Source: a virus. From it: a DNA stretch of 64,000 nt. Below the pieces are notes generated by a model that made no database searches, was not told the origin of the DNA, and saw only the letters and a list, made by a program, of their open reading frames with translations. Made by a program: the position numbers and the translations under genes. The DNA is taken from positions 23,089-87,088 of the IMG/VR virus record IMGVR_UViG_3300047557_002430. One strand, written 5' to 3'. Within the stretch, counting starts at the first letter, position 1. The number at the start of each line of letters is the position of its first letter. Positions 13,284-42,204 of this stretch are shown here, one piece after another.

Positions 13284-14036
13284 GTGGTTTATACACCGTT
13301 ATCTAATTACAAATACGACAGCGGTTTTCACCGTATTCAGTCCGGCCCAAGCCACGAAGGTTTCGTCGTATTAAGTTCCGGCATTCGGGATACTGGTGCA
13401 GACCTTGGCGTAATAACTTCAGGCCCACCTAATAGTGGATCGTGGTACTTAACGACTGAATGGCGTACTGTTCCTCAGGCTGTTTCTGGCTATTGGACAG
13501 ATTATGAAAATTCAGATTATTTACCGAGCGGTTCTCTAAGTTCTTACAACGGTTACAGACCTTTATCTGTTACTACGATCGCGAATGCGAAGGTCGTAAC
13601 TTCCACAGGGCCTCAATACGGTTTACGTGACGAGGGGAAATATACGTATTACGGAGGTATCGCTCCGTCTAACCAAAGCTATAACCCGTATAACACCCCC
13701 GACGCAAACACAGCCGCCGAAGGTTCCACGGGCGGTGGTGTTACACACCGTAATTACGAAGGTACTTTATTAACTAATATTCTGGGTTCTCAGGGAACCG
13801 CTGATCGATCTCAGTGGGTCTATAACCCTCCTGTTTATTGCCAAACGTTTACAGAGACCGTTAGGTCTACAGCTCCGGGTTTAATGTCTTCTGCTCTTCG
13901 GTACGTTTATCGGGGTCGCTCTACTCGTTACGCCTACAACTACGGTTCCGTGTACTTACAGGGTTCTGAATCTGTACGGAATATGGTTCATCGGTTTAGT
14001 CCCACTGTTAACAGCAGCAATCAAAAATCGATTTAA
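13284..14036 (+). CDS. Putative virion structural protein (Tyr/Ser/Gly-rich)
   Basis: Immediately upstream of MCP; 7 SG dipeptides in the first ~85 aa. Confidence 0.55.
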   Translation: MVYTPLSNYKYDSGFHRIQSGPSHEGFVVLSSGIRDTGADLGVITSGPPNSGSWYLTTEWRTVPQAVSGYWTDYENSDYLPSGSLSSYNGYRPLSVTTIANAKVVTSTGPQYGLRDEGKYTYYGGIAPSNQSYNPYNTPDANTAAEGSTGGGVTHRNYEGTLLTNILGSQGTADRSQWVYNPPVYCQTFTETVRSTAPGLMSSALRYVYRGRSTRYAYNYGSVYLQGSESVRNMVHRFSPTVNSSNQKSI

Positions 14037-15248: not shown

Positions 15249-16112
15249 ATGGCTATTAATCCTCAGCAAATCGCCGTTGCCAAAATCTATCCTGGCAACT
15301 ACACCAACGTTCTCCGTTACTGGCACTCCACCAGCAACTTCAGTTTTCTGAACGAGAACGGCACTAACGAGACCTACTCCAATCAGCCGATTGGCGGTCC
15401 CGTCGGCGTGGTGTTCCGTCCCGGTTGGATTGCCCAACAGGCTGTTGGTTATGTTGACCTGTCTTATCAGGCCAGCTCCAGCACTAACCAACTGGATTAC
15501 TACACCCAGCCTTATGGCTCGGGTCAAAACGGCACTAACCAGCCCTTCCGGGCTGCCGACATCATTATTCCGTCTCCTGACGCTTATAAGGATGTCCGTG
15601 CCGATATCACCGACGGTATCACCGTGCCTTCTGGCGCTTATGTGTACCGCGTGTCTGTGCGTCTTGATGGCGGCGATGTGATCTCCAGTGGTATCGCTGG
15701 TGCTCAGACCGCTCCCGCTCTCGGCGTGGGCCCCGCTCTGTCTTCGGGTCTCACCGTGGCCCCCAGCCCCAGCGGCTTCTTCGCGAACCTCGTGGGCTCC
15801 AACAGCCGCATTGAGAACGGCACGTGGAATTCCAGCAACGCCTGGAACGACGCCAACATGCACGTGGTGACTGCGGATACGAAGTACCGTCTGTACAGCA
15901 CCGCCACCGTTCCTGGCTCCGGTCTGGGTCTCGGTTCTGGTGTGTACGATCCCCGTGCTCAGGCCAACAAACTGGCCGGTCGCAACAAAGCCCTCGGCAT
16001 CTGCGAAGTGTGCTGGCTCATCCCCGATGAGGCTCCCAAGCGCGATGACCTGGCTCTGCAACCCGCTGGTCTGGTCGAGTCCAACGTGTACACCTCGACT
16101 GTTCCCTCCTGA
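15249..16112 (+). CDS. High-copy virion protein (capsid decoration/minor capsid-like)
   Basis: Directly after MCP; clear AAGGAGG RBS; same high-expression codon bias; followed by terminator. Confidence 0.65.
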   Translation: MAINPQQIAVAKIYPGNYTNVLRYWHSTSNFSFLNENGTNETYSNQPIGGPVGVVFRPGWIAQQAVGYVDLSYQASSSTNQLDYYTQPYGSGQNGTNQPFRAADIIIPSPDAYKDVRADITDGITVPSGAYVYRVSVRLDGGDVISSGIAGAQTAPALGVGPALSSGLTVAPSPSGFFANLVGSNSRIENGTWNSSNAWNDANMHVVTADTKYRLYSTATVPGSGLGLGSGVYDPRAQANKLAGRNKALGICEVCWLIPDEAPKRDDLALQPAGLVESNVYTSTVPS

Positions 16113-19370: not shown

Positions 19371-19384
19371 ACTTAATAAAAACG

Positions 19385-20273: not shown

Positions 20274-20785
20274 TAAAGAGTGGGCTCAACATGAGCCCAT
20301 TTTTTGTTCCTTTTTATTAAAGAAATACATACTTGAGAAACACCATATTTATTAGCTAAAGATAGCTGTGTTTCGTTTGTAGTTGCGAGCAGTAGTTTTA
20401 TCTCAGCTACTTCTCTTTCAGTAAGTTTGCTTGCTCTATTTTTAGATCCAGTATTATTAGGTTGATTAAACTTTCTTTTATTTTTTTGTTGTTCTGATCT
20501 AGAAGACCATTTACAGTTTGAGGGTTCGTAGTTTCCGTCATTATTTATACGATCCAAGGAATATTCTTGGGAGGGTTTTTCTCCCATATCGGTTATAAAA
20601 TTTAGAAAACCTTCTTTCTGGTATTTTTTTGTTTTATCTGGCAGCCACCGGTCACATATTGTTATTCCTCTTCCTCCGTATCTGGGATAAGCCGAATGAT
20701 TTTTTCTGTAGCAACGATCTACCATAGATTTATAAGTATTCCAGAGAGGATGCGCACACAAACATACATTTGTCATAATGTTCAC
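20267..20785 (-). mobile_element. Free-standing HNH homing endonuclease with C-terminal HTH
   Basis: HPL...Y.SM..RC ... YGGRGI.IC.RW ... F..DMG..P ... SLDRINNDGNYEPSNC.W; KLTE..V..I + HTH; AT-rich, antisense. Confidence 0.88.
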
Positions 20786-20806
20786 AGAAACTTATTCTAA
20801 GGTATC

Positions 20807-22339
20807 ATGGCCAGAAAAAAAGGGTCCGACAATTTTGGGTTTCGTGATTTCAAGGCATCAAAACCTGTAGAGCAACCGAAAACGATACGGGGCTCGGACA
20901 ATCGTTTAGAGTTGTCCAGCCCTTTGCCGTTTAAGCGGAGATTTCGTCCAGCTACGGGGACGAAAGATTTTAGTGTTATAAGCGAGTATGACTACGCTTC
21001 GCTCTGGGTGCGTTGGCGCCGTGGCTATGAGCTTGCGATGTACTCTCAGCAAGCTTATGACGGATTAACTTACTCTTTTAAATATTTTCCTCAGGGAAAC
21101 CCAGGAACAGGTGTCTTCGTCCCTGGTGCTTGCTTTATGTATCCCACAACGCGTTCTGACATGCGTATGTGGATGGTTGGGGTCAGACCTCGTGACTCTT
21201 TTAACTTTCTAAATTTCGGTTACTCCGTATCGTCTGTAACTAAGTACAACGAAGACACTTATGCTGTTCAATTAAATACTCGGTTTGGTGCCCCTATATC
21301 CTTCTTTACAGGAGAGGTTTTATCTAATCGATTTAATGCAGATGGATCTGAAAAACAGTACGGGTATAACAACTACACGGTCACAGCCGTGGGTTTTAAT
21401 AACGTCCCTCTAACACCTACGTTTGCCCCTATTTTTAATACACTGTTTTTATCAATAAGCAGAGATAAAAGTTGGTCTGTTGTTGACGCAACGACACTTG
21501 CTGTTCCCGCGTCTGGTCCGCCAGCTATTGGCGAGTATCTGACAACTGAAATGCGGGCACAATGCACATGCCCTGATTTCCTCAATCGTGAGAATTTAAA
21601 TTTATGGGATGTGTCTCTGCGTCAGCGGTATCCATACACGCGTGTTCAGAACATGGATCCGGGTTTTTATGACGCTGGTCCAAACCAAGCACAGCGGCTT
21701 AATAACTCCTCAGATGATCCCGGCTATGCACGGGCCTTCGGATTTATCTACTTAAACGAAATTTATAACATAGCAAGTTACTCTGAAGCTAGTTATTCAG
21801 ACCCTAACTTGTATTACTTTCAGCCCAAATGGTGTAAGCATATATACGCTGCTATGTGGGATATGCAGTTGAGATACAACCAGACGACAACGACTTCACC
21901 GTGGGTTCTTCATCAGCCGAATGATGAGCCTATGAACGAATACTACAGGGAGAAATTCGATAGAGATTTAGAGAAACAGTTTACGTTCTTGAAGCGCGAG
22001 AAAGATCTGGTGTGGTGGCAACGATATAGCCCGACAAAGGACGGTATGCCTGACCGCATCATGTTGCCTGATATGTACAACATGATGGCGAAAACATTAA
22101 ATGTTGGGGGGTTAGACAGCGCCACGCCTATGCGTCCGCAGGCGTTTGACATGTTTACGTTTGATACCTTTGATCCCTTTGCTCCTGTAAGTCCAGAAAA
22201 CCTACAGGTTTACGACGGCGGTACGTATGCGTACGGTTCCCCGGTATCAATGCCGGTTAACATACTGGACGGAACAACGTATAAAAACGGTACACAAGCT
22301 TTTGTACCTGCTTTTGCTTTAAACGGAGGAACTTATTAA
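20807..22339 (+). CDS. Large putative tail-associated protein with SWIM-type Zn finger
   Basis: CTCPDF ... WCKHIYA; C-terminal DGGTY/DGTTY/NGGTY repeats. Confidence 0.55.
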   Translation: MARKKGSDNFGFRDFKASKPVEQPKTIRGSDNRLELSSPLPFKRRFRPATGTKDFSVISEYDYASLWVRWRRGYELAMYSQQAYDGLTYSFKYFPQGNPGTGVFVPGACFMYPTTRSDMRMWMVGVRPRDSFNFLNFGYSVSSVTKYNEDTYAVQLNTRFGAPISFFTGEVLSNRFNADGSEKQYGYNNYTVTAVGFNNVPLTPTFAPIFNTLFLSISRDKSWSVVDATTLAVPASGPPAIGEYLTTEMRAQCTCPDFLNRENLNLWDVSLRQRYPYTRVQNMDPGFYDAGPNQAQRLNNSSDDPGYARAFGFIYLNEIYNIASYSEASYSDPNLYYFQPKWCKHIYAAMWDMQLRYNQTTTTSPWVLHQPNDEPMNEYYREKFDRDLEKQFTFLKREKDLVWWQRYSPTKDGMPDRIMLPDMYNMMAKTLNVGGLDSATPMRPQAFDMFTFDTFDPFAPVSPENLQVYDGGTYAYGSPVSMPVNILDGTTYKNGTQAFVPAFALNGGTY

Positions 22340-22914
22340 TGACATCAACCCCTGTTGTCTTTCTCTTAAAAAGATCTGGTCTCTCCTCAGACCGTCCTAG
22401 CGGCGTTATTCTGCAGGGAGGCGAGCCTGCGCTTTGTTTTGGTGCTGCAGACCCAGGACTTTACTTTGAAGATTCTGCGGGTTCTGTTCGCAAAATAGGT
22501 CCGGCTCATTACGGAACGACGGCGCCTAACTCTTCTCCGCAGGGATTAGCGGGAAACTCTACCGGTGAGTTATGGACCGATAGCTCAACTTCAGAGTATT
22601 ACTTAAAAGTTTGGACAGGATCAGCGTGGCAGAAAGTAGGGGCTGCGTTTTCCGACTCCGCCACCATAGCTACCTCGGCTGCTACTGCGGGTTCCGCTGT
22701 ATTAGCGTCTGGCGCTGTTTTGGCGTCCGGAGCTATTTTGGCCTCCGGAGCAATCCTTGCGTCAGGTGCTATTAAATGCGCAGACATTGGAGTGAGTGGA
22801 TTACCCGCCCCCAGCAGCTATGCTTCCGGGTCGCTCTTCTACCAAATACAGCCTTCAGGATCCTTTGGTGCGGGACTGTTTGTTAGGGCCTCAAATACTT
22901 GGCTTCAGGCCTGA
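22339..22914 (+). CDS. Tail fibre-like protein
   Basis: N-terminal LKRS..RP..L..GE fibre domain, GELW.D...LKVW.G.AW motif, 4x (A[VI]LASG). Confidence 0.7.
   Translation: MTSTPVVFLLKRSGLSSDRPSGVILQGGEPALCFGAADPGLYFEDSAGSVRKIGPAHYGTTAPNSSPQGLAGNSTGELWTDSSTSEYYLKVWTGSAWQKVGAAFSDSATIATSAATAGSAVLASGAVLASGAILASGAILASGAIKCADIGVSGLPAPSSYASGSLFYQIQPSGSFGAGLFVRASNTWLQA
22696..22767 (+). repeat. Four 18-nt coding repeats encoding A[VI]LASG
   Basis: Peptide unit conserved while synonymous codon positions differ between units. Confidence 0.85.
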
Positions 22915-30345: not shown

Positions 30346-30693
30346 ATGCAGGAAGCTGGGACTCTAGAGGACCGGACTGACCGGTTTCGCCAGGTATACG
30401 AACTTTATCTAGATGGGATGTCGTTTCGTGAAATCGGGGCAAAGTTTGGTGTTTCGCACGAATGTATTAGACAGTTGCTTAAGCGGGGTTCAACAGTTGA
30501 GGAATATAAGGTTCTGAAACTGTACGCTGATAAAAGGCGCGGCAGAACCTGGCAGACTACAGAAGCTATAAATCTGCTTAACGAAGGAAACTCCTGTTCT
30601 CAGGTAGCTAAAATCCTTGGTGTTTCGCTTAGCGCTGTAAAACGTCTTTCGACTGAGTACAACAAAAAGAAAAAGTTAGAGCAAATTAGCTAG
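30346..30693 (+). CDS. Double HTH (sigma region 4-like) DNA-binding protein
   Basis: GMSFREIG.KFGVS.E.IRQ and GNS.SQVA.ILGVS.S.VKR. Confidence 0.8.
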   Translation: MQEAGTLEDRTDRFRQVYELYLDGMSFREIGAKFGVSHECIRQLLKRGSTVEEYKVLKLYADKRRGRTWQTTEAINLLNEGNSCSQVAKILGVSLSAVKRLSTEYNKKKKLEQIS

Positions 30694-30753: not shown

Positions 30754-31677
30754 ATGGGAGCTTGTCCACATTACCCTAGTCGTCACAGTTTTCATACACC
30801 GAATTTTGAAGGGGCTATTGCGGCCCTTGTACAATGTATTTATACGGTCAGCGGCGTGGGCACAACCTCTTTCACGATTGATCCCTCGGGGTATGCCTCT
30901 AACTTCGAGGGCTTAGTTCAGTGCATCGAGGACTTAAATTTTACGCTTAGTGGAGTTAGCGCTGGCGGAGGTGTTTCCTCTATTCAGGCTGGTTCCGGCA
31001 TTTATTTCAGCAGCAGCGGCACAGCTACCGTAATTAATGCCTCTGTTACTTCGGCCTCTGGTATTTCCTTTACAGCAGGGTCTGGCCTTTATTTAGTTGG
31101 TAGCCAGTTCAACATCAACTATGACAATGTATTTCAGGGTTCAGTCTCTGGTCATATCCTTGGCGCTGGTGATAACACTGTTAGCTATAGCGGCAACACC
31201 GTAACGATTAGCGGAAGCGGAACAACCGGAGGCGGTGGCGGCGGAGGAGTGTCCGTTGTGGTCTCCGGTTCGCCTGGCGTTGGGTACACGAACGGTTCGC
31301 TTTGGTTCGATACTAACCAGGGGCGGATGTTTGTGTACGCCAGTGGCAATGGCGTTACTTCAGCGCCTGACTGGTATCAGACGAACGCCGAGGCTCTTGC
31401 CTACAAGAGCGAGCAGCCGCCCTCTGGAACCGGCGCCAATGCTCCCGCTCGCGACGGTAGCCTCTGGTTTAACACCCTGCTGGGCTCGCTCTTCGTCTAC
31501 GACGCGACAACCAGCGGTTGGTACGAAACCGGACCTAGCCGGGGTATTAGCTACAGCGTCGCCGCACCTGCTCCCAGCACTGAGGGTGCTATCTGGGTTC
31601 AGTCTTCTACGAGTCTGGTCAAGGTTTGGAACGGCTCTTCGTGGGCTGACATTAACATTGATGGAGGGGTTTACTAA
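30754..31677 (+). CDS. Fibre/appendage protein, SG-rich
   Basis: Repeated GSLWF.T..G.[ML]FVY and KVWNG..W fibre motifs; ends IDGGVY; 15 SG. Confidence 0.75.
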   Translation: MGACPHYPSRHSFHTPNFEGAIAALVQCIYTVSGVGTTSFTIDPSGYASNFEGLVQCIEDLNFTLSGVSAGGGVSSIQAGSGIYFSSSGTATVINASVTSASGISFTAGSGLYLVGSQFNINYDNVFQGSVSGHILGAGDNTVSYSGNTVTISGSGTTGGGGGGGVSVVVSGSPGVGYTNGSLWFDTNQGRMFVYASGNGVTSAPDWYQTNAEALAYKSEQPPSGTGANAPARDGSLWFNTLLGSLFVYDATTSGWYETGPSRGISYSVAAPAPSTEGAIWVQSSTSLVKVWNGSSWADINIDGGVY

Positions 31678-31679
31678 TC

Positions 31680-32321
31680 ATGCCTAACAGACAGCTTTGT
31701 AAGCGTACGGCGTCTGGTGTCCTTACAGGGCAGCCCTTAGTTGGTGAACTGGTTTTAAATACTGCTTCTGGTTATTTATATACAACTAGGGATGACGGCA
31801 GTTTAGTCTTAATTAACGGCTTAATTCCCGGCCCCAGTGGAGTACAAGGTCCAACAGGCAGCGGTCTTGTGCCGTTTTATGGCAATTTTTATGACACAAC
31901 TACACAGACTAATGCTTCGGGTACTGCTGTAAATAAAATTTCCTATAATACCACTGTTGAAGCTAACGGTGTCTCTGTTGTTTCGGGGTCTTTAATACAA
32001 GTTTCTAATTCTGGCGTATATAACATTCAGTTTTCGGCTCAGGTAGATAAAACTAACGCTAGTTCTGAAGATGTTTTTATTTGGCTTGCCAAAAACAATT
32101 CCAATGTTTCTAACTCGAATACTTCATTAACTATTCAAGGTAACAACACTCGTTTAGTTGCTAGCTGGAACTGGTTTTTAACTATGGACCGCAATGAACA
32201 CGCCGAGTTGCGATGGCATTCGACGGACACAACAGTTCGTTTGTTGTATTCTGGCGGTGCTAATTTACCTACCCGTCCTGCAATTCCTTCTGTTATTCTT
32301 ACAGTTAACCGAGTTGCTTGA
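31680..32321 (+). CDS. Fibre protein with short collagen stretch and C1q/BclA-like C-terminal domain
   Basis: KRT..P..GEL N-domain, GPSGVQGPTG, GVYNIQFSAQ ... IWL.KN ... PAIPSVILTV. Confidence 0.75.
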   Translation: MPNRQLCKRTASGVLTGQPLVGELVLNTASGYLYTTRDDGSLVLINGLIPGPSGVQGPTGSGLVPFYGNFYDTTTQTNASGTAVNKISYNTTVEANGVSVVSGSLIQVSNSGVYNIQFSAQVDKTNASSEDVFIWLAKNNSNVSNSNTSLTIQGNNTRLVASWNWFLTMDRNEHAELRWHSTDTTVRLLYSGGANLPTRPAIPSVILTVNRVA

Positions 32322-32365
32322 CGTTTCTGGATTTGCCGTTACACTAACCGGGTTGCTTTTGCTCC

Positions 32366-32491
32366 ATGGCAAAACCCAAATCTAACGTCGTCAAAATCGA
32401 ATCCAAGCCTAAGACAACTTCGATTGGGCACGGGATTAACTCGCGCCCGGCCCGCCGAGGCAAAAAAAGATATCGCGGCCAGGGGCGTTAA
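32366..32491 (+). CDS. Small basic cyanophage-type protein (KRYRGQG, 41 aa)
   Basis: MAKPKS...PKTTSIG.G ... KKRYRGQGR; below ORF-track cutoff. Confidence 0.7.
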   Translation: MAKPKSNVVKIESKPKTTSIGHGINSRPARRGKKRYRGQGR

Positions 32492-32515
32492 ACTTTAAGT
32501 AGATCTAAGGTCGAG

Positions 32516-32998
32516 ATGTCGTTAGTCACTTTTAGGCCAGGCGAAAACATCTCGACCGGTGATGTCGTCTTCGTTGGTGTAAGCGGGCTCGCTTTTAAAG
32601 CCAACGCTATTTATTCGGATCAAGCCTCTGCTGTCGGTATCGCTACAACTCCCGGCACGTTCGGCTCTGGTTTCCGCGTGGACACCGACGGTGTTTACGC
32701 CAATTACTCGGGGTTAACTCCATCGGATAATCAGTATGTTGCTCTTACACCTTCGGGTGGTATTGCAACGTATAGCGGTTTTGTTGATCAGTTAAGTCTT
32801 TCGTTTATTCCTGGCGCTTACCTAACCGTTATTGGACGCGCTCTTTCTGCATCAGGAGTTTCCATTGAGCGTGGGCGACCTATTTTCATTAACAACACAG
32901 CGTCTCGACTTTTTCTTGAGTCAGGTACTGTTATTGTTGGGGATGCTATGCTTTTAGAGGATGGTTCCTTTATTGATTTAGAAACCAACACTCCGTAA
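32516..32998 (+). CDS. Capsid cement/head-fibre-like (DUF2190-like) protein
   Basis: GENI..GD.V.V..SG...KA.A ... AVGIA ... G.LTP pattern. Confidence 0.6.
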   Translation: MSLVTFRPGENISTGDVVFVGVSGLAFKANAIYSDQASAVGIATTPGTFGSGFRVDTDGVYANYSGLTPSDNQYVALTPSGGIATYSGFVDQLSLSFIPGAYLTVIGRALSASGVSIERGRPIFINNTASRLFLESGTVIVGDAMLLEDGSFIDLETNTP

Positions 32999-33003
32999 TT
33001 GCA

Positions 33004-33771
33004 ATGCCTAATCAGAAGATATCTCAGTTAGCTGCAATTACAACGTTAGTAAGCGGTGATTATTTTCCCGTTGTACAAGCTTCTGGAACCACAAATAAAC
33101 GTGTTGGCGTAGACGTTCTTGACGGTCGTTATTATTCGACCGCAAGCGGTGCCGCTGCTTTAAGTCGGGCTAATGAGGCTTTAGCTTCTGGTAACGCCGG
33201 TATTTTAAATGCTGGTCTTGCGCAGGCGTCTGGTAACGCTGCTTTAGCTTCTGGTAACGCCGCTTTAGTTCTGGGATCCCTAGCTTTAGCGTCTGGAAAC
33301 CTCGGTATTGCTAATGCTGCGACAGCTTTAGCTTCGGGTAACGCTGCGCTCGTTTCTGCGGCTTCTAGGCTGAGTCTTGGCGGCGGTACTCTTTCTGGCG
33401 CCCTAAATATTTCTGGATCGCTTGACGCTTCCGGTGTCATTCGTGATCAAATCGGAAACGTTCGCGCTATTCCTCAAACCTCCGTGGGGACGAGCACATA
33501 TACACTCGTTTCTGGTGATATTGGTAAGCATATTTCTATTGCTTCCGGCGTAGTTACAGTTCCCAGCGGTGTGTTCACTGTTGGCGCTGCCGTTTCTATT
33601 TTCAACAACTCCTCTGGTACTCAGGTCGTAAGCGGTCAGGCTGGTATTACTCTTCGTCAAGCTGGTACTACAAATACAGGCCAGCGTTCCGTTGCAGCAT
33701 ACGGTTTAACAACAGTACTTTGTGTTGATAACACGCAAATTTTTGTTATTACTGGCGCTGGAATTAGCTGA
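33004..33771 (+). CDS. Fibre protein with LASGNAA repeats
   Basis: KISQL N-motif, LSLGGGTLSG fibre motif, YTLV..D.GKHI C-domain; 16 SG. Confidence 0.75.
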   Translation: MPNQKISQLAAITTLVSGDYFPVVQASGTTNKRVGVDVLDGRYYSTASGAAALSRANEALASGNAGILNAGLAQASGNAALASGNAALVLGSLALASGNLGIANAATALASGNAALVSAASRLSLGGGTLSGALNISGSLDASGVIRDQIGNVRAIPQTSVGTSTYTLVSGDIGKHISIASGVVTVPSGVFTVGAAVSIFNNSSGTQVVSGQAGITLRQAGTTNTGQRSVAAYGLTTVLCVDNTQIFVITGAGIS

Positions 33772-34616
33772 TGGGGATACTGCAGGCTTTACTAGCATCT
33801 GGCGGTTCGGCTGCACCTAGTACAGTCGAATACCTTGTCGTTGCTGGCGGCGGCGGTGGGGGTGGGCGCTATTACGCTGGTGGCGGCGGTGCTGGCGGCT
33901 ATCGAACAGCTACAGGGCTTGCGGTTACTACAGGAACACCCTTAACCGTAACTGTTGGAGGAGGCGGTCCTGGCGGTGCCGGTAGTGCCACACGCGGAAC
34001 GCAAGGCACTGACTCAGTATTTAGTTCGATTACATCGACCGGCGGCGGCGGCGGCGGTTCTTATAGCACGGCAGCTAAAGGCGGCAGCGGCGGTTCTGGC
34101 GGTGGTAATAGTGGTTACGATACAGGGACAGCGGGCGCAGGGACTGTTGGACAAGGCAACAACGGCGGCTCCGGCGGAACCTATGGCGGCGGCGGTGGTG
34201 GTGGTGCGGGAGGCGCAGGTAGTAATGGTCCCGGTAACTCCATAGGCGGCACAGGAGGAATTGGTCTCCAATCCTCGATTACAGGTACGGCAACTTATTA
34301 CGCTGGCGGTGGTGGTGGCGCTAACGGCCAATTAGGAACAGGAAACGGCGCAGCGGGCGGTTTAGGCGGCGGTGGCCGAGGATCCAGCACAAACGTCACA
34401 GGCACCGCAGGTACTGCAAACACAGGCGGCGGCGGTGGCGGCGCTAATGGTATTGATGGTGTATTTAACGGCCAAAACGGAGGATCCGGTATCGTTATTA
34501 TTCGGTATCCATCGACTTTCGGCGCCGCCGCAGCCACCACAGGAAGCCCCACCGTGGTCGTCTCTGGAGGTTTCCGTATTTACACTTGGACAAGCAGCGG
34601 GAGCATTACGTTCTGA
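33771..34616 (+). CDS. Glycine-rich (polyglycine) fibre/receptor-binding protein
   Basis: VEYLVVAGGGGGG ... GGSGIVIIRYP ... IYTWTSSGSITF. Confidence 0.8.
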   Translation: MGILQALLASGGSAAPSTVEYLVVAGGGGGGGRYYAGGGGAGGYRTATGLAVTTGTPLTVTVGGGGPGGAGSATRGTQGTDSVFSSITSTGGGGGGSYSTAAKGGSGGSGGGNSGYDTGTAGAGTVGQGNNGGSGGTYGGGGGGGAGGAGSNGPGNSIGGTGGIGLQSSITGTATYYAGGGGGANGQLGTGNGAAGGLGGGGRGSSTNVTGTAGTANTGGGGGGANGIDGVFNGQNGGSGIVIIRYPSTFGAAAATTGSPTVVVSGGFRIYTWTSSGSITF

Positions 34617-34984
34617 TGGCACACTTTGCAGAACTTGATTCCACTAATATTGTTCTGCGCGTAGTCGTCGTCGGTAATTCCGATTGTTTAGACAGCTCTG
34701 GTGCGGAATCTGAAGCTGTTGGCGTTGCTTTCTGCCAAAGCCTTTTTGGCGCTGAGACACGGTGGAAGCAGACAAGTTACAACAACAGATTCCGGAAGCG
34801 TTATGCCGGGATTGGCTATACCTACGACGAAACCTTAGACGCTTTTATTCCTCCAAAACCGTACCCGAGCTGGGGGTTAAATTCTGATACCTGTGATTGG
34901 GAGGCGCCTGTTCCGTATCCTAATGATGGCAATCTTTATAGTTGGAATGAGGAAACCCTTAGTTGGGTTCCTGTTCCAATCTAA
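34616..34984 (+). CDS. Partner of glycine-rich fibre (putative assembly chaperone)
   Basis: Start MAHFAELD (TGATG-coupled); WKQTSYN ... YAGIGY.YD..LDAFI.P.P.PSW ... W.APV..P. Confidence 0.75.
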   Translation: MAHFAELDSTNIVLRVVVVGNSDCLDSSGAESEAVGVAFCQSLFGAETRWKQTSYNNRFRKRYAGIGYTYDETLDAFIPPKPYPSWGLNSDTCDWEAPVPYPNDGNLYSWNEETLSWVPVPI

Positions 34985-35031
34985 ACCTCCCGCTCTGTTT
35001 ATAATTTAAGTAGCAATTTGAGATACATATT

Positions 35032-35535
35032 GTGACTGATCGGGCGATATTTAACCGAAAATATACCGACTATACACCTGCATCTACTCAGGTCTGGTTA
35101 GTTAACGGGGCTGGTGTTACAACACTTCCTGTAAAAAGCCAGACTTTTGTCGCAGGCACTAACTTGATTCAAGGTGACGCCGTTTATGTCAGCGGCACAC
35201 AAGTTTTCCCCGCCACCGCTGCTAGCGGAGACGCTTCATTCAAGGTAAATGCGGTTGGGTTTACGACGACTTCCGCTACCGTCACAAGCGGAGTCAGCGT
35301 GGTGTTCGATGATATTGCTTTAATTAGTTCATCGAATTTGGTTGGTGAGACCCAGATGGTTCCCGGCCAGTATTACTATCTGTCTAAATTTGCCGGAAAG
35401 ATAACACAGTACGTTACAGCTTCTGGTTCTGTTACAGCGTCTGGGGGGTACTCTAACTTAGTTTCGTTAGGAGTTGCTTTAAGTCCTTCTGAGTTAGCTG
35501 TGATGATTGCTCAACCCGTTAATTTGTACGGTTAA
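35032..35535 (+). CDS. Capsid cement/head-fibre-like protein
   Basis: AG..L.QGDAVYV ... AVGF ... PG.YYYLS ... LGVALS; paralogous pattern to 32516. Confidence 0.6.
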   Translation: MTDRAIFNRKYTDYTPASTQVWLVNGAGVTTLPVKSQTFVAGTNLIQGDAVYVSGTQVFPATAASGDASFKVNAVGFTTTSATVTSGVSVVFDDIALISSSNLVGETQMVPGQYYYLSKFAGKITQYVTASGSVTASGGYSNLVSLGVALSPSELAVMIAQPVNLYG

Positions 35536-35561
35536 TCGTATAATTTAGAAAAGGGTATGTC

Positions 35562-35930
35562 ATGGCGCTCCGTAAACCTCTAGTCATTATCAGCGGGCTT
35601 CAGTCGGAGCTTCCCCCTGGTGATTTCGTAGAGGGCGTTCAGCTCACCTTAGTTTCAAACCCCAGCGGCCTTTATTTAGACGGTACAAACCTAGGGTTTG
35701 ATGGTGTTGCTCAGCGCACTGCAAGTAGTGCTTTAGCTAGCGGTAACGCGGCTTTAACGATTCTTGCAAGTGGAGTCCCATTCGTTGCTCCTAATGCAGT
35801 AACAACTGTTAGTATTAGTGGGAAACAGGTTACTACTGAGAAAATAGCTGATGGTGCTATAACTTCCGGTCTTTTAGCTCCGTCGCTCGCTATTTTAGTT
35901 AACCCGAACAACTTCATCGATCTCCTTTGA
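35562..35930 (+). CDS. Small fibre-like protein
   Basis: RKPLV..SG..SEL..GD; LASGNAAL; VTTEKIADGAIT repeat. Confidence 0.65.
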   Translation: MALRKPLVIISGLQSELPPGDFVEGVQLTLVSNPSGLYLDGTNLGFDGVAQRTASSALASGNAALTILASGVPFVAPNAVTTVSISGKQVTTEKIADGAITSGLLAPSLAILVNPNNFIDLL

Positions 35931-35933
35931 GCT

Positions 35934-37520
35934 ATGTCTTACCAGACTGATCTTGTAGATAAGCTCAACAACGTTAACGTCAACACTGCGAGCACAGACG
36001 ACTTATATGTTTTAACTAAGGCTTTTTTTGAGAGCCCGATTGGTCTTGAGTATATTCCTAAAACTTTTGTAAAAGCTCTTAAATCGCGGCTTCTAGACGC
36101 GGGTACTACAGCGGCTCGCGATATCGGTCTTCTTCAAAAGTCGATTAACTATTTGAATTTTGCCGCGTTCCGCGTGGCAAGTACCAACACATTTACACCT
36201 AGTGTAAACGCTATTATTTCACCTGCTCTTGATGATACCGATTTAGATTACCCTATTTTTACTGCAGTTTATGCACCCCGTCTTCCTGACGGGATGCTTA
36301 TGAAAGCTGTTAATATCCCTTCTAATACAAATACTACTATTGGTAACACCATTCGTTTAGCACCCACATATCCCGGTGCTACTTTATTTAGCACATCTAA
36401 TCGACAGAATCGCTTTCAAAGTGAAATCCCCTTTCAGTTGGGCGATAAGTTAACTATTTCGTTTAATGGTTCTCGGGCTTCTATTGGAGCTACAAATAAT
36501 CTTCCTGACAATAATTCTGGGTATGCTGCTCAGAACGGACCTAATCCAACAACTTCAGATAACTTTTTCACAGTTCTATCTCGTTCCTCGGCGCCTAATT
36601 CTTTTGATACGTCTCTTGGTTATTCAAAAGACTGGATTGTTGTACAAGACAACTCCAAAGTTGCTACAACAAATGTGACTTGTTTTGCTTATGTGCTTCC
36701 TGTATATAACTTTTTAAAAGATAATGCAGCTTACTTCTCTAAATTTGGGATCCCTAAAGTTTTCCGCGTACGGATGTGGGGAGCTGGAGGAGGTGGCGGT
36801 GGTGGAACCGCATCCTACGGTGGCGTCCCTGGCGGCGGCGGCGCTTATACAGAAGCCTATGTTACATACGGGGATATAGTTAAAAATCCTTGGGTTTGTG
36901 CTGGGGCTGGTGGGTGCCCTGCTGACTACTACACAAGCCCTAATGATTGCGGTGGAGACGGACAAGCATCTCGTTTTGCCGGGATTGTAGCAAATGGAGG
37001 GTTTGGAGGAAAAAGTTATAACATCGGTGGTTATGGCGGCGCTGCTCAACCTATAGGAGGGCAGATTTTATTTTCTGCCTCTGGCGGTTATTGTACGTCT
37101 GCTGGGCGCGGCACTGATTCATATAAAGGTGGGTCTTCTGCGGGCGGTCCTTGGGGCCCAGGATTTGCTGGCGCGACCGCCAACAGCGCCTGTGGAGGTG
37201 GGGGCATCGCAGGCTCGGGTTTCGGAGTGGCTGGCGGAAGCGGAACAGTAAATATCAGCGGATGGTTCACTCCAATTCTTAGTGGTTGGGTAGGCGCACA
37301 GAACATTAGTGGAATAAATCAAGGTGGTGGTGCCGGAGGCTCAGCAATCGCAGGATATTATTCTGGAGGATTTTTCGCAGGAGGCGCTGCTGGCGGCTTC
37401 ACCACAGCGTTTAGCGCAGAAGGATACGGAACTTTCGGAGGCGGCGGCGCAGGCTCGGTGCCAGGCTACGGCGTGGGCGCCTTCGGTGGTAACGGCGTAG
37501 TTATTATTGAGTGGTTTTAA
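35934..37520 (+). CDS. Fibre/receptor-binding protein with glycine-rich C-terminal domain
   Basis: VRMWGAGGGGG ... GGNGVVIIEW. Confidence 0.7.
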   Translation: MSYQTDLVDKLNNVNVNTASTDDLYVLTKAFFESPIGLEYIPKTFVKALKSRLLDAGTTAARDIGLLQKSINYLNFAAFRVASTNTFTPSVNAIISPALDDTDLDYPIFTAVYAPRLPDGMLMKAVNIPSNTNTTIGNTIRLAPTYPGATLFSTSNRQNRFQSEIPFQLGDKLTISFNGSRASIGATNNLPDNNSGYAAQNGPNPTTSDNFFTVLSRSSAPNSFDTSLGYSKDWIVVQDNSKVATTNVTCFAYVLPVYNFLKDNAAYFSKFGIPKVFRVRMWGAGGGGGGGTASYGGVPGGGGAYTEAYVTYGDIVKNPWVCAGAGGCPADYYTSPNDCGGDGQASRFAGIVANGGFGGKSYNIGGYGGAAQPIGGQILFSASGGYCTSAGRGTDSYKGGSSAGGPWGPGFAGATANSACGGGGIAGSGFGVAGGSGTVNISGWFTPILSGWVGAQNISGINQGGGAGGSAIAGYYSGGFFAGGAAGGFTTAFSAEGYGTFGGGGAGSVPGYGVGAFGGNGVVIIEWF

Positions 37521-37523
37521 ATC

Positions 37524-38204
37524 ATGTCTTTATCTATTCGAGACACACAAGCTTTTACTAACGTTCCTAATAGTAGGAATATCGGCGAATTAGCTTCGCT
37601 TTATGAGACCGAATCTTTAATTCAAGATCAGTTAATTCCTAATGGTGCTCAGGGTATTACTAATCTCTCGTCTCTTGTAATACCTTCTACTGATGTTTTA
37701 TTAAACGCTATTCAGCCCGGTTCTTCTGGCGCAACTACGATCCGTTTTCCGTATAACAGAGATTTGTATGAAGTTTATAAAATTCTTTTTTTAGGGTGTT
37801 TTCAGACTGGCGGCACAGGTGCACTTAATCTAAAGTTTAATGATGATACGGGGTCTAATTACAACCACACATATGCTTTTTGGTCTGGTACAACAAGTAG
37901 TGCTACACAAGCAAGTGCAGCCACTACCAATCCTGTTCTTATAAATTCTCAAGCTTCTAGTATTCCTTTTAATGCTTTTCTAACTATATATACCCCTAAT
38001 TATCAGACTATTGCTGCGCAGGATTACCCTGTCTGGTCCTACCAGCACTTTTCTACTGTGCAAGGTTTTGCTTCTGGTTATATGACAGCTACAGAACCTG
38101 AATATATTCAGATAACTACAACGTATGCGTTTACTCGCGGCCAGATTTTATGCTACGCAACTCCCCAAGTTGCTACCACTAACGTTCCCCCAGCTAACGG
38201 TTGA
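37524..38204 (+). CDS. Putative fibre-associated protein
   Basis: Y..YKI.F ... L.FN.DTGSNY beta domain common in phage fibres. Confidence 0.55.
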   Translation: MSLSIRDTQAFTNVPNSRNIGELASLYETESLIQDQLIPNGAQGITNLSSLVIPSTDVLLNAIQPGSSGATTIRFPYNRDLYEVYKILFLGCFQTGGTGALNLKFNDDTGSNYNHTYAFWSGTTSSATQASAATTNPVLINSQASSIPFNAFLTIYTPNYQTIAAQDYPVWSYQHFSTVQGFASGYMTATEPEYIQITTTYAFTRGQILCYATPQVATTNVPPANG

Positions 38205-38206
38205 CT

Positions 38207-38551
38207 ATGACTGGCAAAATAATCGACGGTATCTTTTACGAGTACACTCCCGAAGAGCAGGCGGAACACGACGCCAAGGTAGTTGCTCAGCTTGAGTACG
38301 AAAAAGATCTTGCGTGGTACTACCTGCGCTCAAAGAGAAATTATCTTTTAACGGCGTCTGATTGGGTTGTTACACGCTCTGTAGAGTTTGGCACTCCCAT
38401 TCCGGACGACGTTATTTCATTCCGCGAAGCTCTTCGTACTATAACCGTTGGGCTTACTGATCCTTCTCAGGCTGTTTGGCCGCCCATACCTGAGATTGTC
38501 GCTAAGTCTTTATTAGACCAGCCTGCTTATCCTTCGGATCCCGTTCTTTAA
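38207..38551 (+). CDS. Tail fibre assembly chaperone
   Basis: LRSKRNYLL..SDW ... FREALR.I ... WP. Confidence 0.8.
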   Translation: MTGKIIDGIFYEYTPEEQAEHDAKVVAQLEYEKDLAWYYLRSKRNYLLTASDWVVTRSVEFGTPIPDDVISFREALRTITVGLTDPSQAVWPPIPEIVAKSLLDQPAYPSDPVL

Positions 38552-38557
38552 AGTCTA

Positions 38558-39430
38558 TTAGATACAGAGTTTATTATAAAGATTCGTAGCTTCTTGTTTC
38601 CATATAAGTTTCCACTTAGCCCAGAATAACTTGCATTCTTCTTGCAGTTGTTTTGTTTCAGTTTCGCTCATATTTTTTACTCTTTCAAAGCATTCCTGCC
38701 ACGATTCCTCTAACACAAAAGGCAACGTGCTTTCTCCATAGAACACGCCGTGCCAATACGAAGGATAAATTTTAAACTGATTTGAGTATTTCACGGTAAT
38801 AGGGATACACCCTGCTTCTAGTGCTTCATATAACCTAAAAGAGTCCATGCTGTCCTGCCCTGCGGGACACAGAGCGAACACACTGTCCCTCATTAACTGG
38901 GAGTATTTCTGAGTCTCTAATCCGTCTGCGGCTCCGAATCCGCTGCACTCTTTATGTATATAGGGCTTTAATGGTTTGAACAAATCGAGCAGTTGTTTGC
39001 GCTCACCGTGGGGAGTACCCATAAAACACCACACGTGATCTCTTACAGATTTAGTAGGCTCCTCGCAAAATCCTCTCTTATAGCCCAACCCAAAAACAGT
39101 TACTTTTGGGTGCTTTAACTGCATTGGATTTAAGTAGTTTCTTAGAAGTCTTACACAATTAGGATCGTGCAGCCATTCACAGGGATCCCTGAGGTTTTCA
39201 TCACTAAGGAGAACAATTGCGTATTTCTTTCCTTCTGCCCTCAGCTCATCTAAAACAAACCTATAAGGGACTGCATGATTGCAGATAATGATGCTGTCCG
39301 TAATATTTACTGCTATGCCTTCGACTACAGGTTTTATAGGTGTCCCACAATCTTTAAATAGGTGTGTAAGCCAGTCAAGCTCAAATAGAGTTTTATCCTG
39401 AGTTAGCCATTGTATCTCAGGGGTTTTCAT
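38558..39430 (-). CDS. Exostosin-like glycosyltransferase (GT47)
   Basis: WCFMG....R, Y..LM..SVFALCPAG...DSFRLYEALEAGCIP, LP. Confidence 0.85.
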   Translation of the reverse strand: MKTPEIQWLTQDKTLFELDWLTHLFKDCGTPIKPVVEGIAVNITDSIIICNHAVPYRFVLDELRAEGKKYAIVLLSDENLRDPCEWLHDPNCVRLLRNYLNPMQLKHPKVTVFGLGYKRGFCEEPTKSVRDHVWCFMGTPHGERKQLLDLFKPLKPYIHKECSGFGAADGLETQKYSQLMRDSVFALCPAGQDSMDSFRLYEALEAGCIPITVKYSNQFKIYPSYWHGVFYGESTLPFVLEESWQECFERVKNMSETETKQLQEECKLFWAKWKLIWKQEATNLYNKLCI

Positions 39431-39474
39431 GTAACTCCAGTCTCTTCGGGCGCTATCGTAGCAGCGAATGTCAT

Positions 39475-40281
39475 TTGCGGTTTCACAAAGTTTTGGATAA
39501 GTTAAATTTTCTTACTGGTTTACCTCGTTCTGGTAACACACTGATTGCTTCCATATTAAACCAAAATCCTGCTATTTACGCTGGCCCACACAGTCCTCTA
39601 GTTGAACTTCTTTGGCGGGCTCAAACTTTATTAACTGGCGAGGAACTCAAAATGTTTCCTCATACCGCTCCTTTAATACACACGCTTAAGTCCATACCTA
39701 AAGCGTATTACAGCCATTGTTCGGCTGATTTAATCCTTGATCGAGGCACGTGGGGATGCCCAGAGAACTTAACGATGATTACAGAGTATATAACCCCAAC
39801 GCCAAAATTTCTTGTTCTAGTTCGTCCTATTGAAGAAGTTATTGTTTCGTTTTTACGGTTGGCTCAGAGGAACCCCGATTCTCCTCTTGCTTCTATTTCA
39901 TCAGTCACGGAGCAGTTTGAATATATCGTTAATAACCTAACGATGTTTAGGAAAGGATTACTAGCAGTTTTATCTTTACATGCGAACCGTGATCGTTACC
40001 AATCTCTGTTTATTGATTACAACAACTTTGTTTCAGATCCAGTTAAAGAATTAGAAAGAATATATGCGTTCTTCGAACTTCCTTTATTTACTCATTCACT
40101 TACAAATATACAACAGCTAACAATTGACTCTATTACTTATGATGATTCTGGGTTTGAATTTACTGATTTACATACGCTCAGGGAGCATAATATTTCTAAA
40201 ACAGAATGTGTTGTAGAGGACTATTTACCTTTTGAAATCATTCAAGAGTGTCGAGACTTTAATGTCTGGCTTAAGGAATAA
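39475..40281 (+). CDS. Sulfotransferase family protein
   Basis: PAPS-binding GLPRSGNTL..SILNQNP; 3'PB VR...E...S; Y...V.DP...L..IY.F. Confidence 0.85.
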   Translation: MRFHKVLDKLNFLTGLPRSGNTLIASILNQNPAIYAGPHSPLVELLWRAQTLLTGEELKMFPHTAPLIHTLKSIPKAYYSHCSADLILDRGTWGCPENLTMITEYITPTPKFLVLVRPIEEVIVSFLRLAQRNPDSPLASISSVTEQFEYIVNNLTMFRKGLLAVLSLHANRDRYQSLFIDYNNFVSDPVKELERIYAFFELPLFTHSLTNIQQLTIDSITYDDSGFEFTDLHTLREHNISKTECVVEDYLPFEIIQECRDFNVWLKE

Positions 40282-40332: not shown

Positions 40333-40704
40333 TTGGCGTTGGATTGTCGGCATTACGTTGCAGAGCTGTACAACGCTGATTCGGCAAAACTAAACGACGA
40401 GAGTTTAATCCGAGAGTTTCTTATTTGCGCTGCTGAGCAGGCTAACTCTTCGTTGATTGACGTAAAAACTCATTCATTTTCACCTCAGGGTATAACTGGG
40501 TTTGCTCTGCTGGCCGAGTCTCATATTTCTATTCACACTTGGCCCGAGCATAACTTTGCAGCCGTGGATGCCTTTACGTGCGGAGAACACACAGATCCTG
40601 AAAAAGCCTGTTTATACTTAGCTTTAATGCTGGATGCTAAAGGACACTCAGTTACATACGTTGAGCGTATGATACCTGAATTCTTAAGTAAATCTAATGC
40701 TTAA
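40333..40704 (+). CDS. speD: S-adenosylmethionine decarboxylase proenzyme
   Basis: H.FSPQG.TG..LLAESHISIHTWPE ... AAVD.FTCG (E-SH cleavage site). Confidence 0.93.
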   Translation: MALDCRHYVAELYNADSAKLNDESLIREFLICAAEQANSSLIDVKTHSFSPQGITGFALLAESHISIHTWPEHNFAAVDAFTCGEHTDPEKACLYLALMLDAKGHSVTYVERMIPEFLSKSNA

Positions 40705-41671: not shown

Positions 41672-41766
41672 GAATCAGTCCTTTAACTAAACTAATTTTA
41701 GATAATTAGCCCTGACGACTTCGTGAGGTTTTCTGCTTAAAATATTAATATCGAGTGGATTACGTC

Positions 41767-42204
41767 GTGGCCCAGTACACAAAGAATCTTGAACTTGACG
41801 GCGTTATCAATAGCGGTATTACTGATCCTACGCGGCGAACAGAATCGACACACTTTGATCAGCGTCGTACCTTAGATGCCAGCGGCGTGGTTGTTGTAAC
41901 CTCTGCTAATCGGGAATATGCCGCTGATGGTATTTATGGTATCTCTGATTATTATCAGTTAACCTTTAATGCCACAGGCATTCTTCGTGTCGATATTCGT
42001 AATCAAAATTCCTGCGGCAACGTCGTAATCCTCAACGCTGCTGGGCAAGAAGTTTTAAATGCAGCTCCTTCCAAATTCAGCTCGCGTGCTACCGCAACTA
42101 CATCTACAACCATTAATACTTCCGGCACTTACTTCACTTACATTCAATTAAAAGGCCGCAGCGGAGCTGAGTACCGCGTGGGCATCAACGTTACGAGTGC
42201 GTGA
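41767..42204 (+). CDS. PPC-like beta-sandwich protein
   Basis: Probable GTG start (MAQYTK); DYYQ.T...G.L.V ... L.A.G ... GTY..I ... Y.V. Confidence 0.5.
   Translation: MAQYTKNLELDGVINSGITDPTRRTESTHFDQRRTLDASGVVVVTSANREYAADGIYGISDYYQLTFNATGILRVDIRNQNSCGNVVILNAAGQEVLNAAPSKFSSRATATTSTTINTSGTYFTYIQLKGRSGAEYRVGINVTSA

Follow-up and report, generated by a model that had tools for sequence, protein, structure and literature searches.

The window and its fibre cassette

We analyzed 64,000 nucleotides of the IMG/VR virus record IMGVR_UViG_3300047557_002430 (the whole stretch is hereafter called the window), with a focus on a block of fibre genes whose products are rich in the dipeptide Ser-Gly (SG) and which ends beside genes for a glycosyltransferase (GT) and a sulfotransferase. 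The record is 87,088 bp long, carries direct terminal repeats, and is covered by the window from position 23089 to 87088. Its source is an 87-kb freshwater cyanophage of the S-EIV1 type: with Synechococcus phage S-EIV1 it shares 46% identity in the portal protein, and relatives of this portal are encoded on 388 IMG/VR stretches, the 80 loci that we kept being 79-93% identical. We found no near-identical DNA among isolate phages. The window genome was compared with four complete genomes of relatives (79-87 kb, portal 84-88% identical).

The genes for terminase, portal, capsid and tail are followed by a series of short fibre genes (30754-38551), then by a GT47-like gene on the opposite strand and the sulfotransferase gene; beyond these lie genes for an S-adenosylmethionine (SAM) decarboxylase, an HNH protein and a lysozyme, and then the replication genes. 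The region 30754-38551 is a host-recognition fibre cassette. We name its open reading frames (ORFs), all on the + strand, by their first position. The cassette opens with a 307-aa fibre protein that has orthologues in all four complete relatives (ORF 30754, 30754..31677) and a 213-aa fibre protein that is absent from all four, a variable cassette gene matching the 'collagen like minor tail' family phrog_30509 at E 6.9e-6 (ORF 31680, 31680..32321). They are followed by a 160-aa protein that weakly resembles cement or decoration proteins (ORF 32516, 32516..32998; Pfam Phage_cement_2, E 9.5e-4, under the cut-off) and by a 255-aa fibre or spike protein with an N-terminal anchor motif, a stalk of (L-A-S-G-N-A-A) heptads and a C-terminal beta domain (ORF 33004, 33004..33771). 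Next come a glycine-rich protein with 103 Gly in 281 aa (ORF 33771, 33771..34616; Pfam Gly_rich_2, E 1.9e-22) and a small conserved partner of this fibre and Gly-rich pair (ORF 34586, 34586..34984; phrog_7759, E 8.7e-48). The remainder of the cassette encodes a 167-aa protein whose five SG are all retained in the orthologue of relative G002 (ORF 35032, 35032..35535), a 122-aa fibre protein with one ALASGNAAL unit (ORF 35562, 35562..35930; phrog_892 tail fiber, E 5.2e-5), a 528-aa glycine-rich fibre or adhesin-like protein (ORF 35934, 35934..37520; phrog_863, E 1.8e-4), a 226-aa protein without family match in Pfam or PHROG (37524..38204), and a tail-fibre assembly chaperone (38201..38551; Pfam Phage_tail_APC, E 3.7e-8; phrog_4912, E 2.6e-14).

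Ser-Gly dipeptides in the outer virion proteins

An earlier note on this DNA, which proposed a proteoglycan-like glycosylation of the virion at Ser-Gly sites, had counted SG and the reverse dipeptide Gly-Ser (GS) by hand. We recounted both in the 72 ORFs of the window, with 2000 shuffles of each, and all of its counts proved exact. In ORF 33004, 16 of the 31 Ser precede Gly and only 2 GS occur; 4.3 SG are expected, and 16 were reached in none of the 2000 shuffles. Nor did any shuffle reach the observed count for ORF 35562 (6 SG and 0 GS, 1.2 expected, 0/2000 shuffles). Excesses are also found in ORF 31680 (8 SG and 3 GS, 2.1 expected, p 0.0005), ORF 30754 (15 and 10, 7.3 expected, p 0.001), ORF 32516 (7 and 2, 2.2 expected, p 0.0015) and ORF 35032 (5 and 1, 1.8 expected, p 0.023). 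Outside the cassette, SG is frequent in a minor-tail-like protein with (L-A-S-G-A-I) hexad repeats (ORF 22339, 22339..22914, + strand; phrog_356, E 2.4e-20; 9 SG and 5 GS, p 0.0095), in a 149-aa protein encoded upstream of the lysozyme gene and conserved in 22 of 24 loci (ORF 41755, 41755..42204, + strand; 4 and 0, p 0.01), and in a 287-aa protein encoded directly 3' of the major capsid protein (MCP) gene (ORF 15249, 15249..16112, + strand; 7 and 4, 2.9 expected, p 0.015), whose homologue in S-EIV1 (62041-62832) has 9 SG and 3 GS. The excess is marginal in a 250-aa protein encoded upstream of the MCP gene (ORF 13284, 13284..14036, + strand; 7 and 6, 3.6 expected, p 0.054). The MCP (14116-15231) and the terminase (4374-5894) have no SG and two GS apiece, and two glycine-rich proteins of the cassette are not enriched (ORF 33771, 8 SG and 11 GS, 9.9 expected; ORF 35934, 8 and 6, 8.1 expected).

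For the six fibre ORFs between 30754 and 35930, the pooled counts are 57 SG and 18 GS, where 18.9 would be expected. Across the 62 other ORFs in the window, the counts are 75 SG and 97 GS for an expectation of 82.1 (SG at 0.91x), so we reject a genome-wide SG bias. Over the 10 fibre-like ORFs (2101 aa), SG exceeds expectation more than any other dipeptide (84 against 29.5, 2.85x) while GS occurs 33 times (1.12x), a difference with a binomial p of 2.7e-6. The shuffles and this asymmetry bear out the earlier view that the excess goes beyond composition, and the signal is conserved and lies at the protein level: 21 distinct hexamers, with codons of both Ser families, encode the 84 SG, which rules out a DNA-level motif as the cause and points to selection on the protein rather than on a DNA word. 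A general preference for small or polar residues before a turn Gly was rejected as a full explanation, since in the same proteins NG (0.68x), TG (0.65x) and AG (0.81x) are depleted and DG reaches only 1.38x. Periodic repeats are not the sole cause either, as ASG[NA] units hold just 12 of the 84 SG and the other 72 are still at 2.37x. The residue before SG is A, V or P in 48 of the 84 cases, and the commonest residues after it are V, L, T and S. A strong, lineage-specific and Ser-specific dipeptide signal marks the outer virion proteins.

The sole non-structural outlier is the family-A DNA polymerase (55139-57034, - strand), with 6 SG and 1 GS against 1.5 expected (p 0.0025); given that 72 ORFs were tested, it is probably due to chance.

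Conservation across the lineage

The SG excess spans the S-EIV1-type cyanophage lineage. In the four complete relatives, nearly all ORFs with a significant excess are fibre-block or tail ORFs, and they include some that are not homologous to those of the window, for example a 283-aa protein with 18 SG and 1 GS. In three alignments of orthologues, the serines of SG are conserved at 83%, 96% and 100%, against 31%, 52% and 21% for other serines, and all other residues are conserved at 58-68%. More precisely, the orthologues of ORF 30754 keep 50 of 60 SG serines and 39 of 124 other serines, and those of ORF 22339 keep 26 of 27 SG serines. ORF 33004 has 764 homologues at E<=0.001, the best 120 of which contain 1402 SG against 381 expected, and 304 GS. 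In S-EIV1, a 562-aa fibre ORF has 25 SG and 7 GS (7.4 expected), and four further ORFs are rich in SG. Fibre ORFs of this phage lie at 78221..731, 768-2573, 62041-62832 and 66674-67453 of its record.

Architecture of the ORF 33004 fibre

To locate the dipeptides in a fold we used an AlphaFold2 (AF2) monomer model of ORF 33004, based on an alignment of 57 sequences, with a mean predicted local distance difference test score (pLDDT) of 74.9. The model shows one long helix that spans residues 49-122 (block pLDDT means of 79-94) and, at the C-terminus, a beta domain, the knob, whose fold matches the Pa223 capsid spike and the N-terminal part of the CBA120 tailspike TSP4. Residues 49-122 follow a heptad register in which position a is L or I in 9 of 10 repeats and position d is G or A in all 11, with Ser at c and Asn at e, such that SG fills positions c and d of A-x-A-S-G-N-A-A. 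Five of the 16 SG lie within the predicted helix and one immediately before its start; in the knob, there is one between two strands, and four are placed where strands end or in the loops next to them; the remaining five fall in low-confidence coil. In the stalk, conservation over the 57 sequences reaches 90% or more at each of A108, A110, S111, G112, N113, A114 and A115. Since the flanks are as invariant as SG itself, the stalk looks more like a structural unit than like a minimal sequon. A beta-roll was considered for the ASGN repeats, given matches of two homologues to Pfam LbR_Ice_bind (E 0.0012 and 0.078, under the cut-off), and was not adopted in view of the long helix in the AF2 model.

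The C-terminal domain of ORF 33004 (about 100 aa) also belongs to a three-gene cassette consisting of a fibre with this domain, a Gly_rich_2 protein and a small phrog_7759 protein. The cassette occupies 33004-34984 in the window and recurs on unrelated phage contigs (SU10-like podoviruses and others): homologues of ORF 34586 adjoin the same fibre and Gly-rich pair in loci L005 (6715-8958), L006 (5885-11609) and L007 (6533-8138). It looks like a mobile host-recognition unit, with a layout like that of a fibre with its adhesin or chaperone.

A conserved module of glycan enzymes

Pfam scans covered the 72 window ORFs and 22 ORFs upstream of the window. As the earlier note had stated, the fibre block ends in a GT47-like gene and a sulfotransferase gene, both of which score above the Pfam cut-offs. 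The first (38558..39430, - strand) encodes a single-domain, soluble GT-B glycosyltransferase of 290 aa that resembles GT47 and RXYLT1 (Exostosin_GT47, 41.4 bits for a cut-off of 33.4; RXYLT1_C, 34.3 bits for a cut-off of 27). Its GT47 match is limited to positions 164-260 of the 293 of the model, that is, to the C-terminal half, and its sequence match to human exostosin-1 is weak (E 0.005). In a Foldseek search with the AF2 model (pLDDT 87.1), the first match was A075L of chloroviruses (GT114, E 1.1e-6) and the second EXTL3, with SenB, Gtf3/GtfC and EXT1/2 following at similar values, every one of them near E 1e-6. Small GT-B enzymes of many specificities are the nearest solved folds, at template modelling (TM) scores of 0.44-0.65. 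The gene is present in all five records that are at least 90% complete.

The neighbouring gene (39475..40281, + strand) encodes a sulfotransferase of the type that uses 3'-phosphoadenosine 5'-phosphosulfate (PAPS), with matches to Sulfotransfer_3 (51.9 bits, cut-off 27), Sulfotransfer_1 (36.4 bits, cut-off 22) and phrog_27463 (E 1.5e-49); its N-terminal residues 8-42 match the phosphosulfate-binding loops of NoeE and TPST. It is an accessory gene, with a homologue in none of the four complete relatives and in one of 24 loci centred on the GT47-like gene (30% identity). The next gene, for the SAM decarboxylase (40333..40704, + strand; Pfam AdoMet_dc, E 8.9e-38), is a divergent neighbour of the GT47-like gene and adjoins it in 19 of the 24 related loci. 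In S-EIV1, the SAM decarboxylase gene adjoins a GT4 gene instead.

The earlier note had also placed five more glycan enzymes in the head module. Three of them have solid Pfam matches: a GH130-like protein with a mannoside phosphorylase/transferase fold (2065..3144, - strand; Glyco_hydro_130, 33.9 bits for a cut-off of 26), 66-74% identical in the four relatives; a GT4 glycosyltransferase divergent from the terminase gene (3148..4320, - strand; Glycos_transf_1/4 above the gathering cut-off; phrog_2170, E 2.7e-46); and a GT17-like glycosyltransferase directly upstream of the portal gene (8486..9328, + strand; Glyco_transf_17, E 3.4e-16), 81-84% identical in the four relatives. The other two are weaker. 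The gene between those for portal and capsid (12225..12890, + strand) encodes a probable methyltransferase, with a Methyltransf_24 match under the cut-off (E 0.0014), and was found in two of the four relatives. The 290-aa ORF directly after the terminase gene (5953..6825, + strand) has no Pfam or PHROG match and may be one more GT: the atlas links it weakly, with a score of 0.92 and 127 shared features, to a viral cluster of which 55% carry Glycos_transf_2. The sole sequence match of the GT4 protein in the PDB is B736L of chlorovirus NY-2A (E 9.1e-20, residues 10-348), and its identity to homologues is 42% for S-EIV1, 44% for S-CBS4 and 31.5% for TJE1. Sequence searches of the PDB with the GT2, GT17-like and GH130-like proteins gave nothing useful.

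The set of glycan enzymes is large, and exceeds what the earlier note saw. Genome positions 17007-21199, just upstream of the window, encode RmlD, RmlB, RmlA, an FkbM methyltransferase and a GT2 (loci L017 and L018). The three Rml proteins pass the NCBIfam equivalog cut-offs (RmlA 369.9 bits for 360.65, RmlB 394.1 for 365.1, RmlD 251.4 for 224.05). No RmlC (PF00908) was found in six frames of the whole 87-kb record, which leaves the four-enzyme set for dTDP-L-rhamnose incomplete; the RmlC function may be supplied by the host, or the product may be another 6-deoxyhexose. The GH130, GT4, GT17, GT47, FkbM and GT2 genes are present and syntenic in all four complete relatives, RmlA and RmlB are accessory and found in none of them, and RmlD is found in one. 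Eleven glycan enzymes have no clear membrane segment (the highest Kyte-Doolittle mean over 19 residues is 1.58), and the Pfam scans revealed no family of lipid-carrier enzymes, initiating phosphoglycosyltransferases, flippases, polymerases, ligases or oligosaccharyltransferases. A pattern-based scan for related loci, which has a short reach, returned only close relatives for the GT47-like and GT4 genes (24 and 80 loci, respectively). Interspersed among its structural genes, this tailed phage carries a conserved module of soluble, glycan-building enzymes that have relatives in chloroviruses.

Ser-Gly excess and the glycosyltransferase repertoire

The earlier note had suggested a comparison with homologous fibre domains of phages that lack GTs. 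As an out-group we took 13 fibre proteins that have the C-terminal domain of ORF 33004 (loci L003-L009 and L011; S-B28; SnaP-R1). A scan of 101 ORFs at these loci, among them the unannotated ORFs of the two complete T7-like genomes, revealed no GT family. The out-group fibres are much less rich in SG: pooled, they have 126 SG and 103 GS against 101.2 expected, and without the collagen-like protein of L006 they are at 1.53x for SG and 0.97x for GS, a milder bias in the same direction. In the aligned C-terminal domain, 10 sequences of the lineage (the in-group) have 41 SG against 18.1 expected and the 13 of the out-group have 24 against 16.8. Many out-group proteins likewise have SG at two knob positions (one in VPSG, the other close to the C-terminus), and a third position is TG in the out-group.

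A GT4 gene is present in every SG-rich genome that we examined (G000, G001, G002, G003, G005 and S-EIV1). S-EIV1 is rich in SG, yet GT4 is the only one of 11 glycan-gene queries that it matched, and Pfam searches of 44 further ORFs of this phage added nothing more than one weak Methyltransf_24 match. Two other phages bear GT4 and pool at an SG of only 1.32x (S-CBS4) and 1.26x (TJE1), their large tail fibres being at expectation; 2 of 36 ORFs in S-CBS4 and none of 35 in TJE1 reach p<0.01 for SG. In the siphovirus S-CBS4 (NC_016766.1, 9916-12282) the gene order is portal, GT, GT, methyltransferase, protease and MCP, and in Tetrasphaera phage TJE1 (NC_019930.1, 8193-10731) GT4 and methyltransferase genes lie upstream of the terminase genes. 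A pair of GT4 and methyltransferase genes near head-assembly genes therefore recurs in unrelated phage lineages. Since all SG-rich genomes belong to one lineage, and thus amount to a single positive lineage, the co-variation of SG with the GTs is inseparable from shared ancestry.

Comparison with known systems

Mycobacteriophage virions are reported to be glycosylated by phage-encoded glycosyltransferases (Freeman et al. 2023, as cited in PMC12582341 and PMC11256854). The phage described here likewise has its own soluble GTs beside structural genes, with the virion as the proposed target, but hosts and phage lineages differ, and a glycan on the cyanophage virion is putative. Chloroviruses (PBCV-1, NY-2A) encode soluble GTs and methyltransferase functions, A064R carrying a methyltransferase domain, that build a rhamnose-containing methylated glycan in the cytoplasm (PMC4691112); B736L is a putative capsid-glycan enzyme (PMC4691112) and A075L is the beta-xylosyltransferase of the core of the capsid N-glycan (PMC11571054). 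The likeness extends to the GT4 protein, which matches B736L, to the GT47-like protein, whose first fold match is A075L, and to the freshwater habitat of both viruses. In chloroviruses, however, it is the major capsid protein that carries the glycans, in N-linkage, whereas the cyanophage MCP has no SG, and the match to A075L is at the level of the fold only (TM 0.44-0.46, 15-19% identity) and barely ahead of other GT-B enzymes.

A cytoplasmic, Ser-specific O-glycosylation of repetitive fibrous adhesins is described for TibC and AAH, which act on TibA and AIDA-I; TibC heptosylates Ser-313 of TibA (in ...NSGG...) and Ser-322, and not Thr (PMC4358343). The modification of the cyanophage fibres is putative by comparison, the sugar and the enzyme fold are different, and the adhesins are beta-helices while the phage stalk is predicted to be helical. 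The Pfam scans of window and upstream ORFs found no transferase of the TibC family. Cyanomyoviruses (P-SSM2, S-SCSM1, S-SCSM2R) have surface or lipopolysaccharide (LPS) clusters that also contain many GTs together with nucleotide-sugar and rhamnose-pathway genes, but these are hypervariable islands in T4-like genomes, read as serving modification of the host surface or of DNA (PMC12801897). In the phage studied here, which belongs to a different lineage, six core glycan genes are interleaved with structural genes. Our survey of the literature, which did not extend to the primary papers on mycobacteriophage glycosylation and on S-EIV1, turned up no publication that describes glycosylated cyanophage virions or a phage sequon at SG.

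Interpretation of the Ser-Gly excess and of the glycan genes

The reading that we favour, with about even confidence, is that the SG excess is an architectural signature of the fibre modules of the lineage and that the glycan genes form a separate module. In the stalk, SG fills positions c and d of the heptad in an A-x-A-S-G-N-A-A unit that does not vary, with Leu or Ile at a and Gly or Ala at d; in the predicted knob, the SG pairs lie at or beside turns and loops between beta strands; and the same habit of [S/T]-G fills the fibre repeats of S-EIV1. The glycan module is real and conserved. Its enzymes are soluble and cytoplasmic, with the B736L-like GT4, the GH130-like, GT17-like and GT47/A075L-like proteins, the GT2 and the methyltransferases, to which RmlA, RmlB, RmlD and the sulfotransferase are accessory in this phage. 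With nucleotide sugars as direct precursors, the module could make a methylated glycan that contains deoxyhexose. We rate a structural role of SG at least as highly as a role as the site of sugar attachment, which we find unlikely. The excess is not tied to a single GT family, because S-EIV1 shares only GT4 and because S-CBS4 and TJE1 are barely enriched.

Several observations weigh against a purely structural origin. The excess is Ser-specific, although Thr, Ala and Asn often serve equally well before a turn glycine, and it occurs in unrelated folds, in at least six non-homologous proteins. Its size is 2.4-3.7x in the in-group against 1.25-1.5x in the out-group, and three knob positions that are SG in the in-group are TG, TQ or AS in the homologues of GT-free phages, a gain that looks like lineage-specific selection for Ser before Gly. 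In ORF 33004, the serines of SG in the stalk and the N-terminal part are almost never replaced by Thr or Ala (S17 is kept in 50/50 sequences, S27 in 52/56, S62 in 52/55, S97 in 47/48 and S111 in 55/55), and core packing does not explain such invariance at heptad position c, since this position should be exposed to solvent. The structures are predicted only, and the AF2 monomer has low confidence outside stalk and knob. The Ser-only invariance at a presumed surface position of the stalk agrees with a role that is specific to Ser, perhaps in an unusual local structure or through a modification. These same features argue for phage-encoded, cytoplasmic O-glycosylation of the fibres without any analogy to proteoglycans, in which a soluble enzyme, most likely the lineage-wide GT4, would add the first sugar to exposed SG of folded or folding fibres, while extension and capping of the glycan would fall to the remaining GTs and to the methyltransferases. 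The signal is directional, at the protein level, and carried by serines that are conserved better than any other fibre residue (83-100%, where the remaining serines reach 21-52%); GT4 accompanies it in all SG-rich genomes examined; the enzymes are soluble and come without detected lipid-carrier machinery; TibC provides a precedent for Ser-only O-glycosylation of a repeat protein in the cytoplasm (PMC4358343); and the fold neighbours of the GT47-like protein include Gtf3/GtfC, which act on glycans of serine-rich adhesins. We nonetheless judge from these sequence patterns that O-glycosylation of this kind is improbable. The SG-rich genomes count as one evolutionary observation. SG is hardly enriched in S-CBS4 and TJE1, which bear GT4, and S-EIV1 is missing 10 of the 11 glycan genes that we queried. 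The invariance of the stalk motif extends well past SG, GT-free phages have some of the same SG and TG turn positions, and the Pfam scans contain no known family of protein O-glycosyltransferases (GT41, TibC-like, GtfA/B). Its most explicit version, in which S-EIV1-type cyanophages would O-glycosylate invariant exposed SG serines, recurring every 7 or 14 residues in the stalk, with a methylated deoxyhexose-type glycan made by chlorovirus-like soluble GTs in the cytoplasm and sulfated in some strains, is as a whole slightly more doubtful still.

Where the earlier note went astray is in the proteoglycan analogy. Eukaryotic proteoglycan assembly shares with this phage the Ser-Gly dipeptide, a GT47-type domain and the PAPS-type sulfotransferase fold, and a strict counterpart, with xylose-primed, exostosin-extended and sulfated chains of glycosaminoglycan type on SG, would find its GT47/RXYLT1-type domain beside a sulfotransferase at the end of the fibre block, together with the weak match to exostosin-1. 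In eukaryotic proteoglycans, the Ser-Gly attachment site is flanked by acidic residues. Around the 84 SG, from -3 to +5, the share of Asp and Glu is 4.1% against a background of 6.0%, and the scans of window and upstream ORFs found neither a GT14-type xylosyltransferase nor a GT64 domain. Given the absence of acidic flanks, xylosyltransferase and GT64 domain, the analogy fails; moreover, the GT47 match is partial, the fold of the protein is closest to small GT-B enzymes, and the compartment would be cytoplasmic. The sulfotransferase is not integral to the system: whereas the whole lineage shows the SG excess, this accessory gene is missing from all four complete relatives and from 23 of the 24 loci. 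We regard the strict form as close to refuted. A different account takes the glycan genes as an auxiliary host-takeover set that would remodel LPS, extracellular polysaccharide or cell wall, for example for superinfection exclusion or protection from grazing, with the virion and the SG excess unrelated; as to what the enzymes act on, it is a rival of the virion reading, and it is compatible with a structural role of SG. The equivalog-level RmlA, RmlB and RmlD are classic O-antigen genes, they and the sulfotransferase are accessory and variable as is usual for such islands, and cyanophage GT clusters have been read in this way (PMC12801897). But six glycan genes are core and syntenic in the complete relatives, they sit among terminase, portal, capsid and fibre genes, the scans found no initiating phosphoglycosyltransferase, flippase, polymerase or ligase, and the closest solved relatives of two GTs are chlorovirus enzymes, of which A075L builds a glycan of the capsid protein (PMC11571054). 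Host envelope glycans are a possible target that we consider less than probable, and a virion component, by analogy with chloroviruses and mycobacteriophages, is a candidate target to which we give a little under even credence.

Other features of the genome

At the head of the fibre block lies a gene for a small regulator resembling helix-turn-helix proteins and sigma-70 region 4 (30346..30693, + strand; Pfam HTH_23, E 2.4e-12; Sigma70_r4, E 3.8e-11). The structural module also contains two genes on the opposite strand, for an AP2-domain protein (16584-17144, - strand) and a ferritin-like protein (22905-23444, - strand). In the replication arm, a bpMoxR AAA+ ATPase (E 2.1e-55) adjoins a VWA-domain protein (58466-61372, - strand), forming a MoxR-VWA pair. 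The terminase of S-EIV1 (KJ410740.1, 54080-56620; 14080-16620 in L121) has 846 aa against 506 aa in the window phage and matches the latter in two blocks about 1 kb apart, which likely reflects an intein or another insertion. Finally, an S-EIV1 ORF labelled 'sulfate adenylyltransferase' (KJ410740.1, 17153-18619; L120) has no Pfam match at E<=0.001, and we consider this annotation doubtful for that reason.

Implications

Whatever the relation between SG and sugars, two results stand, namely a conserved soluble glycan module and a Ser-specific SG signal on the outer virion proteins. The lineage has hundreds of relatives in freshwater viromes, and S-EIV1, whose host is Synechococcus sp. PCCC-A2c, is a cultured isolate that has both SG-rich fibre ORFs and GT4. 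If the two results were linked, this would be the first case of virion glycosylation in a cyanophage and the first phage O-glycosylation with a readable sequon. Phage fibres would then carry a glycosylation code that can be read from their sequence, and the host-range determinants of an abundant lineage of freshwater cyanophages would be coated with sugar, with consequences for receptor binding, for protease and grazer resistance, and for the prediction and engineering of fibres.

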